From Deltaproteobacteria bacterium (GTDB lineage Bacteria > UBA10199 > SBBF01), in the NCBI GenBank assembly GCA_016183175.1, contig JACPFC010000016.1, positions 11,932-75,931 of the forward strand: a stretch of 64,000 bases of DNA, in the 5' to 3' direction. Under the pieces are notes generated by a model. That model did not search any database. It was given only the letters and a program-made list of their open reading frames with translations, and was not told the origin of the DNA. Every line of letters starts with the position of its first letter. The stretch's first letter is position 1. Positions 10,702-15,338 of this stretch are shown here, one piece after another. Position numbers and translations under genes: made by a program.

Positions 10702-11145
10702 GTGCAAATGATCGACGTTCCACGCGACGACATGGTGCTTCTGCTTGAGGCGGGGTATCTCTATCTCGCCATGGGGAAATACGCCGAGGCGCGGCAGGTC
10801 TTTGAAGGGGTATCCGTTTTGGCCCCCAAACATGAGGTGCCGCGGGTGGGGTTGGGCAATGTCCTGTTCGCCCAAAAAAAATTTCTTCCGGCCATAAGGG
10901 TTTTAAAGGATGCCCTTGAATTAAGGCCCGACAGCGCCTTTGCCCATGCCCATCTGGGGGAGGCCCTTCTTTTTTACGGAAAAAAAGACGAGGCGCTCAA
11001 AGAGCTGAAAAATGCCGCGGAAATCGAGCCGAAGGGAAAGGCGGGCGATTTTGCCCGGTCGCTGACCGAGCTCGTCAACATGGGGTACGATCCGGTCAAA
11101 CTCAAAAAAGAGTCGCCCAAAAAAGCATCGGGGAAAGGCGCATGA
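10702..11145 (+). CDS. TPR protein, YscG/PscG-like or class II chaperone-like
   Basis: 147 aa all-TPR (LYLAMGKYAEARQVFEGV...; VLFAQKKFLPAIRVLKDALEL...); position after the needle-like gene mirrors yscE-yscF-yscG. Confidence 0.4.
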   Translation: MQMIDVPRDDMVLLLEAGYLYLAMGKYAEARQVFEGVSVLAPKHEVPRVGLGNVLFAQKKFLPAIRVLKDALELRPDSAFAHAHLGEALLFYGKKDEALKELKNAAEIEPKGKAGDFARSLTELVNMGYDPVKLKKESPKKASGKGA

Positions 11146-12065
11146 AATTAAATCGTATCATCCTGTTTTTTTTCCTCGCCGTCTGCATCGGCTGTTCCAC
11201 GCAGGTGCCGCTCCTTTCGGGGCTCGACCAGAAAGACGCCAACGAGATCATGGTCCTTCTTCACAAAAACGGCATCGGGACCAAACGGACGGTGGTGGAA
11301 AAACAGCAGGAGATGACCTGGAGCATCAGCGTTGCAGGCCGTGACGAAGACCGGGCGCGGGAGTTGCTGGTGGCAAACCATCTGCCGCGTGAAAAGGAGC
11401 TCGGCCTCAAAGGGATCTGCAAGGAGGCCGGCCTTATTCCCACCCCCAAGACGGAAAAATGCCGCGAACTTTTGGCGCTTAAAGGGGAAATCATCAACTC
11501 GCTGGTATCGATTCCGGGGGTGGTGAATGCCGATGTTGTTTTGAACATTCCCGAAAAAGAGGATTTTCCCGACGAAAATGCCCCGCCCCCCCGGCCGACC
11601 GCCTCGGTGACGGTTGAAGTATCCAAACTTGGCGAAGGGGAGGCGCGGCTGACCGACGCCAAAATTCAGCGTTTTGTGGCCAATGCGGTCTCCGGGATGG
11701 ACGAGCGCGATGTCTCGGTGATCATTAGTCTTGCGGAAGGGTTTACAGAGACATTGCCTGTCGAGATGGAGGGTGCAATGGGAGAAGATGGGGAGGGATT
11801 GGACGAGGAACCGATGGCGATGGAAGGGATGGTTTCGGCCGGAAAAGTCAAGCTCCTGGCCACCCTCTTTTTGTTTGTCTTTGCCCTTTTGTCGGCCGCC
11901 CTGATCTACATTTTGATTCGTCAGGCCCGTCTCCGTCAGGTTTCCACCGCCTTGGCGCCAGTGGGGGAAAATCCGGCCCTGTCCGAAAAGGCCGACATGG
12001 ATGATGTGGTGAGTCAGACAGCCTCCGCCAGAGGGGGAGTGGGCCGAAGACCGAGGGGGGTATAA
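11142..12065 (+). CDS. SctJ/YscJ/PrgK-family inner-membrane ring lipoprotein
   Basis: Lipobox LAVCIGCS; LLSGLDQKDANEIMVLLHKNGIGTKRTV matches the SctJ N-terminal motif (LxxGLxExEANEixaLLxxxgI); C-terminal TM VKLLATLFLFVFALLSAALIYILI plus cytoplasmic tail; 307 aa (FliF would be about 550 aa with an N-terminal TM). Confidence 0.65.
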   Translation: MKLNRIILFFFLAVCIGCSTQVPLLSGLDQKDANEIMVLLHKNGIGTKRTVVEKQQEMTWSISVAGRDEDRARELLVANHLPREKELGLKGICKEAGLIPTPKTEKCRELLALKGEIINSLVSIPGVVNADVVLNIPEKEDFPDENAPPPRPTASVTVEVSKLGEGEARLTDAKIQRFVANAVSGMDERDVSVIISLAEGFTETLPVEMEGAMGEDGEGLDEEPMAMEGMVSAGKVKLLATLFLFVFALLSAALIYILIRQARLRQVSTALAPVGENPALSEKADMDDVVSQTASARGGVGRRPRGV

Positions 12066-12121
12066 CCCCTCGACAAAAATATTTCACTTTTTTCGCAACT
12101 CAAAATGTAACACCGGCGAAT

Positions 12122-12535
12122 TTGCGGATCGATTATTCCACCGCCGGCAGATGGATAGGGCCGGAGGCCCCCAAACAGACCTTCTGGCAAAAACTGGGGC
12201 GCGGCTTGGCCAAGGTGGGGTCATACGTATTGCCGATGGCGGCGGCGGTGGCCCCCTTTTTTGGGCCTCTGGGCTTAATCGGCGGGGCGGCGGCCTATGG
12301 CCTCAACCGGTTTGCCAACGATCAGCTCTACAAGGCCCAGGTAAAAGATCAAATCTACATGGCCAACCAGCCGGTTCCCCAAAATATCACCATGCCGGGG
12401 CTCTTTGAGGCCACCGTGACCACTGTGGGGGATCAGGCCACCGAATTTATCGCCCCCACCGAAATGAGCCCGGCCATCGAGGATGTGGTCATTCAACGCG
12501 ACGCGTCGCAAAAAGAGGCTGTTTATAATTTCTAA
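12122..12535 (+). CDS. Hypothetical protein with one hydrophobic segment
   Basis: ORF only; hydrophobic VLPMAAAVAPFFGPLGLIGGAAAYGL; no family recognised. Confidence 0.25.
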   Translation: MRIDYSTAGRWIGPEAPKQTFWQKLGRGLAKVGSYVLPMAAAVAPFFGPLGLIGGAAAYGLNRFANDQLYKAQVKDQIYMANQPVPQNITMPGLFEATVTTVGDQATEFIAPTEMSPAIEDVVIQRDASQKEAVYNF

Positions 12536-12547
12536 ATTCAAGTTGTC

Positions 12548-13883: not shown

Positions 13884-13886
13884 ATC

Positions 13887-14360
13887 ATGGATCCGATCAT
13901 CGGCAAATTAAACCGCGTGGCGACCGAGAAGATCAAAGGCGCTTCCCAGGGAAAAGTGGGAGCCCCGGAGACCTCGTTCAAGCAGACCCTCGACCAGACG
14001 ATGACCGACAAACTCATCGAGAAGATGCGCGAAACCTATGCCGGGAGCGCCCCGAATGAAATGACGGCGGTCTCCGCCGAGAATATCAAGGTGACAACGG
14101 CGGGTCCGGAGATGGGGACAACCAATGCCGAGGGGACCGACCAGTTTTTTCAGACCTTCAAGGAGATGAACAAGGATCTCTTGAGCCTCGATTCGGCCCT
14201 CGAAACGCTGACAACGCCGGGCCTGAAACTTTCCCCCCAGCAATTGCTGGCCATGCAGGCGGGCATCGCCAACACCACGCTGATGGCGGAGGCGTTTTCC
14301 CGCTTCACCGATTCGGTCGCCCGTGGTATTCAGACCATTGTCCAAACACAGGTCGGGTAA
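13887..14360 (+). CDS. FliE/SctI-like rod-adapter protein candidate
   Basis: C-terminus LLAMQAGIANTTLMAEAFSRFTDSVARGIQTIVQTQVG resembles the FliE C-terminus (...[23 protein letters not shown]); sits directly upstream of fliG as in fliE-fliF-fliG. Confidence 0.4.
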   Translation: MDPIIGKLNRVATEKIKGASQGKVGAPETSFKQTLDQTMTDKLIEKMRETYAGSAPNEMTAVSAENIKVTTAGPEMGTTNAEGTDQFFQTFKEMNKDLLSLDSALETLTTPGLKLSPQQLLAMQAGIANTTLMAEAFSRFTDSVARGIQTIVQTQVG

Positions 14361-14378
14361 CCTGAATAAAAGTCTTTC

Positions 14379-15338
14379 ATGGTTCAAACCTATTTGAACG
14401 ACCGCCAGAGGGCCTTTGTGCTGATCGCCCTTATGGCCGATCGCGCGAGAGTCAAGGAGTATATCCCCTTTTTGCCCCCGCACGAGCAGGAGAGCGTCTC
14501 CACGGTTCTCAATCAGCTTCTCGAACGGACGGGGGCCGAAAAAAACAGGGCGATTGTCGATGAACTCCGGCGCCTGATGGCGACGGCGCAGTTGAATTTT
14601 CTCCCCGAAATCCACCCCGACTGGATTCTGGAAGCCCTCCTTCCCGAAACCCCCCGGACAATCGCCGCCATTCTGCGCCATCTGCCGGGCCAGCATGTGC
14701 AATATCTGCTCGATCGCCTGCCGCAGAATGTTGTGAAAGACCTCCCTTCCTTTTCGGAGACCTTTGCCCTCAATCCCGAACTGGCGGCGGTTTTGCGCCG
14801 GAACTTTGAGGCCTCCTTTGCCCCCATGCCCTCCTCCACGGGGGGCTTGAAGCATTTTTCGTTCGAGACCCTTCATTTTCTTTCCGCCGAAAAACTGTTG
14901 TCGCTTTTCCGCGAGGTCGGCCTGCGTGAGGTCGCCCTGGCCTTCGGGACGCTCAACCCCAAAACGGTCGAGATGATCCTTTCCCGCCTGTCTCAACGGG
15001 ACGCGGCCCTCCTGAAACTGCGGCTGGAAAAGAGGGAGGTGGTCTCAGACGATCGCCTTAAAAAGGCCCAGGGCCACCTGTTGGGACTCGACTTGGAAGG
15101 GGAGGGGCGGGGCGCAAACCCCGAAGGCCTTTTCATGGAGTCCGGGTTTTTTGTCTATTCAAAGGCCCTTCTGCCGGCGCATCTCGAGGCCGGCCTTGTG
15201 ATTCAGCAAAAGATGACCCGGCCGCTCGGTCTTTTGCTCAAGCGCCACGTGGACAAGAATCTCCCGCTCAATTCGGAAAAAACGGTTTTTCCGTATCAAA
15301 AGGAGATCGTCCAGATTGCGCGAAATATGGTATATTGA
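14379..15338 (+). CDS. fliG: Flagellar motor switch / C-ring protein FliG
   Basis: Middle domain (EPxxIAxILxHL-type: TPRTIAAILRHLPGQHVQYLLDRLP); C-terminal domain LREVALAFGTLNPKTVEMILSRLSQRDAALLKLRLEKREVVSDDRLKKAQGHLL aligns with E. coli FliG LLIALKGAEQPLREKFLRNMSQRAADILRDDLANRGPVRLSQVENEQKAIL. Confidence 0.7.
   Translation: MVQTYLNDRQRAFVLIALMADRARVKEYIPFLPPHEQESVSTVLNQLLERTGAEKNRAIVDELRRLMATAQLNFLPEIHPDWILEALLPETPRTIAAILRHLPGQHVQYLLDRLPQNVVKDLPSFSETFALNPELAAVLRRNFEASFAPMPSSTGGLKHFSFETLHFLSAEKLLSLFREVGLREVALAFGTLNPKTVEMILSRLSQRDAALLKLRLEKREVVSDDRLKKAQGHLLGLDLEGEGRGANPEGLFMESGFFVYSKALLPAHLEAGLVIQQKMTRPLGLLLKRHVDKNLPLNSEKTVFPYQKEIVQIARNMVY

Follow-up and report, generated by a model that had tools for sequence, protein, structure and literature searches.

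Results

A FliG gene and an sctJ gene in one type III secretion cluster

We analyzed a 64-kb stretch of DNA (the window, to which all coordinates without a locus handle refer) from an uncultured bacterium, a metagenome-assembled genome (MAG) that NCBI labels "Deltaproteobacteria bacterium". Six co-oriented genes occupy nucleotides 11142-15338; the first encodes an SctJ-type inner-membrane ring lipoprotein, identical to a protein of a "Deltaproteobacteria bacterium" MAG (locus tag HYU99_01810), and the last a homologue of FliG. Both genes are part of one type III secretion system (T3SS) cluster that spans 4.6-22.8 kb of the window, entirely on the + strand. The cluster begins with the gene of an FHA-membrane helix-PEGA/TPR protein in the position of SctD (4656), followed by an 808-aa open reading frame (ORF) and by genes for a 99-aa helical protein, a needle-like protein (10071), a TPR protein and SctJ. 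From sctJ it continues with protein A (12122), protein B (12548), a sigma factor (13080), protein E (13887) and the FliG-like protein, and from there with SctL/FliH, the ATPase, a YscO-like stalk protein, a FliK/SctP-like protein, FliM-like and FliN-like proteins, FliO, FliP, FliQ and FliR.

This order recurs in at least eight divergent loci on groundwater and other metagenomic contigs (L004/L011, L006, L007, L008, L009, L010, L016, and L021). L008 and L009 come from MAGs labelled Nitrospiraceae or Nitrospira, while L016 and L021 are the NCBI MAGs GCA_964384365.1 and GCA_046346885.1. Because the same gene order is kept where the FliG-like proteins share no more than 28-50% identity with the window copy, the pairing of SctJ with FliG is, on comparative grounds, not a product of chance. 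In some other genomes the cluster is split, and the genes for the 99-aa protein, the needle-like protein, the TPR protein, SctJ and protein A stand as a free five-gene module among housekeeping genes (L014 8584-11497; L015 3382-6388; L020 372-3476). The cluster is therefore separable, and protein A travels with SctJ.

The gene order parallels two series at once, namely the flagellar fliF-G-H-I-J-K-(L)-M-N-O-P-Q-R and the Yersinia yscE-F-G-(H-I)-J-K-L plus yscN-O-P-Q-R-S-T. In such a comparison, the slot held here by the FliG-like gene is that of FliG in flagellar operons and of SctK in injectisome operons, as in yscJ-K-L, mxiJ-K-N and sctJ-hrpB4-sctL. The stop codon of the FliG-like gene overlaps the start of sctL/fliH (15335), and in all related loci the gene lies directly upstream of sctL. 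A FliG gene thus occupies the sctK slot, a point that goes beyond the preliminary description of this region. Taken together, the region is probably the core of a conserved T3SS subtype that, as far as we found, has seemingly not been described.

The ring protein is of the SctJ type

The gene at 11142..12065 encodes 307 aa that were classified by Pfam, NCBIfam and PDB profile searches. A signal peptide, whose lipobox Cys aligns with the "L[AT]AC" of the orthologues, precedes a region with two ring-building motifs (RBMs; residues 20-194), which Pfam YscJ_FliF covers with 79.5 bits. Past RBM2 there follow an acidic linker, one membrane helix (241-259) and a cytoplasmic tail of 48 residues (260-307). 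NCBIfam scored the protein at 126.7 bits as SctJ vs. 19.4 bits as FliF; the first value is below the SctJ equivalog cut-off of 161.95 (TIGR02544) and the second does not reach the FliF cut-off of 129.75 (TIGR00206). The solved relatives found at E<0.01 in the PDB profile search were MxiJ, PrgK and EscJ only, with zero FliF. Its lipoprotein signal, YscJ_FliF domain, C-terminal membrane helix and length are those of the SctJ class (~190-330 aa), while FliF is ~550 aa long. Since it has no third ring-building domain (RBM3) and no N-terminal membrane helix, the protein is not FliF. We regard it as a divergent SctJ, as judged from its sequence, in agreement with what the preliminary description had proposed. 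That description had also noted that no FliF accompanies it, and this held as well: tblastn with E. coli FliF gave nothing in the 64-kb window and no FliF lies within 10 kb in any related locus.

The SctJ family comprises 450 detectable members. Among the 117 homologues with a detectable C-terminal membrane helix, tail lengths range from 22 to 55 aa (median 33); about 5 residues follow this helix in YscJ and about 10 in MxiJ. The tail of the window SctJ carries a motif, NPALxEKxxMDxVV, that is conserved among homologues and takes the form "ALPEKxxMDxLVEE(T/A)G" in the window's clade. In many other SctJ homologues the extreme C-terminus carries "(D/E)xKLLEA" instead, and "DPKLLQ..." marks a third group.

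The protein in the sctK slot is a FliG homologue

The 319-aa product of the gene at 14379..15338 was assigned by Pfam, PDB profile, AlphaFold2 (AF2)/Foldseek and hhalign comparisons. It comprises N (1-72), M (73-151) and C (154-241) domains and a family-specific four-helix domain (250-318). Pfam returned FliG_C (43.8 bits), FliG_M and MgtE_N for the window copy; across the family, FliG_M and FliG_C were matched in 17/17 members and FliG_N in 7/17. A profile built from 13 family sequences matched only FliG chains in the PDB, over the M and C domains and with a best E of 3.7e-12. The AF2 model (pLDDT, its per-residue confidence measure, 82.8) retrieved FliG at Foldseek ranks 1-17, including full-length FliG from cryo-EM C-rings, and no SctK chain was among the 50 matches listed. 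By hhalign, residues 20-232 aligned with E. coli FliG at 92.8% probability, while likeness to YscK, HrpB4 and MxiK was 0.1-1.2%; all hhalign templates used here were single sequences, hence of low sensitivity. The NCBIfam fliG equivalog (TIGR00207) was not reached, with 39.6 bits vs. a cut-off of 226.7. The protein is, by these homology searches, a true FliG homologue with three domains, and the earlier statement that a FliG is encoded near the ring protein is borne out within the same conserved cluster. A YscK-like character was also considered and rejected as chance: Pfam YscK matched at E 0.021 in only 1/17 members, and the three SctK types were negative by hhalign.

The conserved residues of the family point to some functions of FliG and away from others. 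Of the charged residues through which E. coli FliG contacts the stator (K264, R281, D288, D289, and R297), the alignment retains only the equivalent of R281; those of D288 and D289 are Leu and Arg in the window copy, and in the family as a whole the former position varies and the latter is basic in most members. This loss, together with the lack of mot genes, argues against a role of the protein in torque generation. The EHPQR region reads E-[ST]-P-[RQ] in the family, with Glu90 invariant, Pro92 nearly invariant and the distal Arg not conserved. Because Glu90 and Pro92 of EHPQ are conserved, and because the FliM-like protein of the cluster keeps its GGXG motif (LGGEG), a contact between the M domain and the FliM-like protein is plausible. 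The linker between the N and M domains is shorter than in flagellar FliG. The C-terminal four-helix domain (window 15126-15335) was modeled with pLDDT >90 and has no counterpart in FliG; G256 and K278 are invariant in it, and S261, K262, and N298 nearly so.

Proteins A, B and E

Between sctJ and the sigma-factor gene lie two small ORFs that the preliminary description had listed as of unknown function; both are real genes, conserved in other loci. Protein A (12122..12535) is a small membrane protein with a helical hairpin and disordered ends. It is kept in nine loci, always 3' of sctJ, and also stands beside sctJ in the split clusters of L014, L015, and L020; a word-indexed homologue search found only 5 proteins. 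AF2, run on a 5-sequence alignment, gave a two-helix hairpin (21-47 and 49-81) with a pLDDT of only 52, and hydropathy revealed a Gly/Ala/Pro-rich hydrophobic segment that is consistent with a hairpin. No Pfam or NCBIfam family, PDB profile or hhalign match was obtained (0.1% for the E. coli FliF C-terminus). From the model, protein A is possibly a membrane-hairpin accessory of the SctJ ring.

Protein B (12548..12913) is small and fast-evolving. Its N-half is disordered, its C-half is helical, and it contains the motif G[KR]F[ED]K[IV]L; an HMMER scan of 1.84 billion representatives found five true relatives, and the protein is missing from L010. The 9-bp tandem repeat at 12686..12713 (AACGAAAAA x3.1, 100% matches, + strand) does lie inside this gene, as had been noted before, and encodes NEKNEKNEK in its variable linker. 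It is private to the window copy and, because it occurs in no relative of protein B, incidental.

Protein E (13887..14360), whose gene lies between those of the sigma factor and FliG, had been taken for FliE. We found its C-terminus to be needle/inner-rod-like, with hhalign probabilities of 8.6% for YscF, ~2% for YscI and MxiI, and 0.3% for FliE; the weak matches all fall in register on needle/inner-rod C-termini, and the L021 orthologue matches Pfam T3SS_basalb_I at E 0.035. It is therefore described here as a probable inner-rod/needle-family protein and not as FliE. The hhalign templates for A, B and E were E. coli FliE, FliF C-terminus, FliG, FlgM, FlgN, and FlgB/C and the Yersinia Ysc proteins, and E alone gave weak needle/rod matches; PDB profile searches with the three proteins yielded nothing meaningful.

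The SctD-position protein, needle-like protein and candidate chaperones

The protein that heads the cluster (4656..6881) was examined by Pfam and hydropathy. Pfam assigned FHA, Yop-YscD_cpl, PEGA and TPR domains, and its topology is that of SctD: the FHA domain (49-134) precedes a membrane helix (233-251) and ~490 periplasmic residues. These bear PEGA and TPR domains, not periplasmic ring-building motifs. The closest solved FHA domains are phosphothreonine binders of the GarA/Rv0020c type. The gene heads the cluster also in L004, L006, L007, L008, L016, and L021, and its product, which the preliminary description did not consider, is a candidate for a second ring or docking component.

Classical needle subunits are ~80 aa long and lack an N-terminal extension of the kind seen in the needle-like (SctF-family) protein of the window (10071..10586), where ~110 aa rich in Gly, Ser, Thr, Ala and Tyr, conserved in the orthologues, precede the needle-like part. 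The family aligned with the MxiH needle by hhalign at 58% probability (E 9.6e-5), the C-termini matching end to end, and the L021 orthologue gave a faint T3SS_needle_F match. On either side of this gene are candidate chaperones. The 99-aa small helical protein in the yscE position (9635..9934) is 61-77% identical across all loci and has no family match; by its position, it is possibly a co-chaperone of the needle-like protein. The TPR chaperone-like protein in the yscG/hrpB1 position (10702..11145) matched Pfam TPR families and HrpB1_HrpK (1.5e-4), with hhalign probabilities of 56% for HrpB1 and 44% for YscY.

The 808-aa ORF (7009-9435, +) that separates the SctD-position gene from the 99-aa gene produced a sub-threshold CheR-like methyltransferase match only. 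It has no counterpart in any related locus, and L004 carries an AAA_14 gene at that place; it is possibly cargo or an effector.

The stator, ATPase, putative platform and export gate

Directly after the FliG-like gene comes that of the SctL/FliH stator protein (15335..16042), which matched Pfam FliH and T3SS_SCTL and leaned to the injectisome type in NCBIfam (HrpE/YscL 115 bits, FliH 86 bits). The ATPase (SctN/FliI, 16043..17440) exceeded both equivalog cut-offs (FliI_clade2 635.8 bits, SctN 626.4 bits) and is about equally like Firmicute FliI (58% identity) and AscN (55%). The SctO/FliJ stalk protein (17440..17943) matched Pfam YscO-like with 73.6 bits. A SctP/FliK-like ruler candidate (17951..18889) was assigned by position and a weak Flg_hook match (E 0.048) that also occurs in L016 and L021; its top hhalign template was FliK at 3%. 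The FliM-like protein (18876..19841; Pfam FliM 55.3 bits) scored 59.3 bits with NCBIfam fliM vs. 15.3 bits with SctQ and has no recognizable CheY-binding N-terminus. It is followed by a separate FliN-like protein with a SpoA domain (19851..20357; Pfam FliMN_C 71.6 bits) and by the export-gate genes for FliO, FliP/SctR, FliQ/SctS (21620-21886) and FliR/SctT (20364..22790).

Other components were sought by tblastn. In the 64-kb window, L016 FlhA, YscU and the secretin YscC gave nothing, FlgB gave chance-level matches only and FlgC none. L016 and L021 carry an FlhA gene a few kb upstream of the cluster. No genes for rod (FlgB/C, FliE), hook, filament or MotAB were found in the window or within 10 kb in the related loci, and no secretin was found in the related loci.

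Regulatory elements and flanking genes

The sigma-factor gene is preceded at 34 nt by a sigma-54-type promoter, TGGCAT-N6-TGCA (13031..13046, +), which is kept at the same place in six loci (promoter sites include L004 18146 and L006 14798). A scan with the strict sigma-54 consensus had missed it, and cross-locus alignment revealed it. The pattern has two matches in the window vs. 0.47 expected; the second (23722..23737, +) precedes the next conserved operon by 50 nt and is likewise kept in L004 and L006. The sigma factor itself (13080..13883; Pfam Sigma70_r2 and r4) belongs to the FliA/WhiG (sigma-28-like) family, scoring 136 bits with NCBIfam FliA_WhiG, below the cut-off of 189.6, and is 63-74% identical across loci. 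Because sigma-54 promoters precede both the sigma-28-like/FliG operon and the downstream operon, the arrangement suggests a flagellum-style transcriptional hierarchy, sigma-54 acting first and the sigma-28-like factor second.

Two further elements were noted. Directly after the stop codon of protein B, nucleotides 12923-12946 (+) hold GGACGG repeats, an inverted repeat (GTCC...GGAC) and then TTTGGGGG; similar elements occur in L006 and L007, and the element may terminate transcription or, lying upstream of the sigma-54 promoter, bind an activator. A sigma-70-like element, TTGACG-N17-TATTTT (~9467-9495, +), lies upstream of the operon of the needle-like protein, SctJ and protein A, and is also found upstream of the 99-aa gene in L004, L014, and L020.

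Past the 3' end, the operon behind the second sigma-54 promoter encodes an acidic 290-aa protein, a TPR protein and a 294-aa protein (23722..26210, +). This module also lies 3' of fliR in L004 and L006, and its products are possibly substrates with their chaperone. In the window a PIN-domain toxin gene and a 70-aa partner gene (22817-23420, -) are inserted between fliR and this operon; the pair is not at that place in L004 and L006. The cluster is further flanked by genes for an FHA-domain sigma-54 activator (26902-28296, -) and a Ser/Thr kinase with PEGA domains (28308-30353, -), which are likely regulators. FHA and PEGA domains also occur in the SctD-position protein, which hints at phosphothreonine-dependent control. 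The PknD-CdsD pair of Chlamydia is a resembling arrangement.

On the 5' side, a TPR protein is encoded at 119-1432 (-) and kept in L016 (5096-6277, -; 39% identity). In L007, L016, and L021 this opposite-strand gene adjoins that of a double-FHA protein, and in the window an AAA_14/DUF4143 ATPase gene and a 301-aa ORF separate it from the cluster.

Discussion

Proposed docking of the FliG-like protein

The reading that, on balance, best accounts for the whole is a T3SS subtype in which a FliG-like adaptor would hold a platform under an SctJ/SctD-like ring. The FliG-like, FliM-like and FliN-like proteins would form a non-rotating C-ring or sorting platform, which SctL would join to the ATPase and which would be suspended beneath the ring. 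As the adaptor, the FliG-like protein would probably bind the FliM-like protein through its M domain and dock with its N domain on the cytoplasmic tail of SctJ, while the FHA domain of the SctD-like protein may add to this docking. The operon of the sigma-28-like factor and FliG, and the downstream operon, would be driven by the sigma-54 promoters. Since an SctJ-type ring protein and FliG are encoded in the same cluster, and no FliF was found in the window or the related loci, it is fair to read the arrangement as an alternative to the MS-ring of FliF, one that would serve a FliG-containing complex in the cytoplasm; of the split or alternative MS-ring that had been suggested, this half stands, and a split by way of the protein at 12548 is not supported.

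For the docking itself we tentatively favor the SctJ tail, because a homologue of the FliF-binding domain is retained in the FliG-like protein, the tail corresponds in topology to the FliF C-terminus and it contains a conserved linear motif. This is put forward with less than even confidence, as several observations weigh against it, and some against the larger picture. The tail, on inspection, has no evident FliF-like motif (P..V.A..IR.W) such as that in the E. coli FliF C-terminus, "...DNDPRVVALVIRQWINNDHE". Its motif is degenerate in L006 and absent in L010, yet both loci encode a FliG-like protein. The tail of ~50 aa reported in the preliminary description was confirmed at 48 residues, long next to YscJ and MxiJ; as a mark of a FliG-bearing system, it did not prove distinctive, because an HrcJ-type SctJ from Mycetohabitans, whose system has no FliG, has a tail of 31 aa, and tail length is thus not diagnostic. 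Unlike the coupled fliF-fliG pair, sctJ and the FliG gene are in different operons, and in some genomes in separate loci. In injectisomes, the protein of this gene slot binds SctD, not SctJ. Finally, FlhA and FlhB were not found in the window.

The strongest rival follows from that gene slot. The FliG-like protein might act like SctK and dock the FliM/FliN platform on the FHA domain of the SctD-position protein (4656-6881) instead of the SctJ tail, and this docking may be phosphothreonine-dependent, under the neighboring Ser/Thr kinase. Several features are in keeping with such an arrangement: the FliG-like gene sits in the sctK slot directly upstream of sctL, an FHA-membrane helix protein heads every complete locus, its FHA domain resembles true phosphothreonine binders, and a PEGA-domain kinase and an FHA-domain activator are encoded nearby. 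There is also a precedent in Salmonella, where OrgA (SctK) binds both PrgH (SctD) and the FliM-like N-domain of SpaO (PMC9907115). However, the FliG-like protein has no detectable similarity to SctK, and it keeps homology to FliG_N, whose known partner is the tail of the ring protein. We therefore consider docking on the FHA domain possible, though the less probable of the two; both contacts could operate together.

A different role has to be weighed for protein B, that of a FlgM-like anti-sigma factor, which would block the adjacent sigma-28-like factor until the apparatus secretes it. In favor are the small size of protein B, its disordered N-half and helical C-half, the place of its gene next to and upstream of the FliA-family sigma gene in six loci, and the otherwise flagellum-like logic of the cluster, from sigma-54 to sigma-28. 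However, no similarity to FlgM was detected with E. coli FlgM (hhalign 0.1%), the Pfam and NCBIfam FlgM families or PDB FlgM chains, and L010 retains the sigma gene without B. A FlgM-like function is thus unlikely, and protein B is more loosely described as possibly a secreted regulator.

Still less probable is a split MS-ring, in which protein A or protein B would supply the FliF-like cytoplasmic element for FliG. What speaks for protein A is its predicted membrane hairpin with conserved cytoplasmic ends and its constant place beside sctJ, even in split clusters; for protein B, it is the helical C-half and the superficially FliF-like stretch "SPDEVVRIALAGHPW". Yet neither protein matches the E. 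coli FliF C-terminus (hhalign 0.1% in both cases) or a PDB chain, and the AF2 model of protein A is of low confidence. The preliminary description had seen a likeness to FliF C-termini in the tail of protein B, and it is here that the proposal fails: the protein is poorly conserved and absent from L010, and the Trp of its "HPW" is replaced by Leu, Ile, Phe, Ser or Cys among 10 aligned relatives. Its family profile found no FliF in the PDB, though the PDB includes FliF C-terminal peptides. Protein B was therefore rejected as a surrogate for the FliF tail.

Flagella occur in the genus Nitrospira, and some MAGs with related loci are labelled Nitrospira; nevertheless, that the FliG gene belongs to an ordinary flagellum with fliF and the rest elsewhere, its nearness to sctJ being incidental, is hardly credible, given that the SctJ...FliG-like-SctL order is kept across loci at 28-50% identity, that the protein falls so far short of the NCBIfam fliG cut-off, that it has lost the stator-contact residues and gained a C-terminal domain, and that rod, hook and Mot genes are in none of these loci.

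Evolutionary implications

Two questions in the evolution of T3SS are how the FliF-FliG junction became the SctD/SctJ-SctK junction and whether SctK is related to FliG; reviews give the flagellar counterpart of SctK as "FliG (?)" (PMC4045390). Both become testable in a system with SctJ, an FHA-type SctD-like protein and a K slot held by a bona fide FliG. Also testable now are which partner the FliG N domain takes without FliF, and whether non-rotating FliG/FliM/FliN proteins assemble into a ring or into pods. It is conceivable, though doubtful, that this clade is a living intermediate of the transition from flagellum to injectisome. In such an intermediate, the MS-ring protein might already have given way to SctJ with an FHA-SctD-type partner, a needle-like protein being present as well, while the SctK slot would still be held by FliG, together with FliM, FliN, FliO and a FliA-like sigma factor; we put this forward as a speculative reading. 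If true, it would be direct evidence that FliG is the ancestor or the former holder of the SctK position, and it would also mean that a FliG/FliM/FliN ring is mountable on an SctJ-type ring by way of a new short tail motif and not the FliF C-terminus. The cluster extends the range of T3SS known from uncultured environmental bacteria, and it indicates phospho-signaling (FHA, Ser/Thr kinase) and a cascade from sigma-54 to a sigma-28-like factor as regulators.

Comparison with known systems

The cluster is a mosaic of injectisome and flagellar traits, and the literature searched yielded no account of a full-length, separate FliG in an SctJ-type system. Its flagellar side is most apparent at the junction of MS-ring and C-ring, with a FliG that has N, M and C domains, separate FliM (with GGXG) and FliN, and FliO; the gene order G-H-I-J-K-M-N-O-P-Q-R, the sigma factor of the FliA/WhiG family and the sigma-54 promoters are also as in flagella. 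In contrast to the flagellum, the ring component is of the SctJ lipoprotein type, without RBM3, the sequence of its tail is not FliF-like and the window has no FliF. The acidic stator-contact residues are lost and no Mot, rod, hook or filament genes were found in the loci. The FliG itself differs from that of flagella in its extra C-terminal four-helix domain and its shorter N-M linker.

The likeness to the injectisome and its sorting platform lies in SctJ, the FHA-bearing SctD-position protein, the YscO-like stalk, the SctL-leaning stator, the needle-like protein and the TPR chaperone-like proteins, and in colinearity with the yscE-F-G...J-K-L and yscN-O-P-Q-R-S-T operons. Unlike in injectisomes, a FliG homologue takes the K slot, FliM and FliN genes stand in place of SctQ, no secretin was found, and the SctD-position protein has PEGA and TPR domains instead of ring-building motifs.

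Chlamydia has no flagellum but retains a sigma-28 factor and flagellar-type paralogues of FlhA and FliI. It resembles the present system in coupling a short SctJ-like ring protein with FliG-like sequence, the chlamydial short FliF being fused to a FliG-like M region (Bergeron, PMC4768692). By that published description, the two differ in that the FliG-like part of Chlamydia is an M region fused to the ring protein, whereas the FliG of the window is separate, full-length and encoded 2.3 kb downstream.

A close parallel may be drawn with the system of the Myxococcales, an early-branching non-flagellar T3SS (NF-T3SS) without FliE, FliG, SctF, and secretin (Abby and Rocha, 2012; PMC3459982); the needle-less T3SS* of Myxococcus xanthus has been reviewed (PMC10433427). 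Both are environmental T3SS of non-pathogens with a cluster that lacks a secretin. They share SctJ and an FHA-type SctD, SctL, SctN, SctQ-type proteins, SctRST and several TPR (LcrH-like) chaperones, and both can be proposed as intermediates between flagellum and injectisome. The SctD of Myxococcus consists of an FHA domain and a membrane helix only (Bergeron, PMC4768692), unlike the protein found here, with its ~490 periplasmic residues bearing PEGA and TPR domains. The Myxococcales system is the only described intermediate and is reported to lack FliG (PMC3459982); by this published description, the present cluster is set apart by its clear FliG homologue, its needle-like protein and its FliA-like sigma factor.

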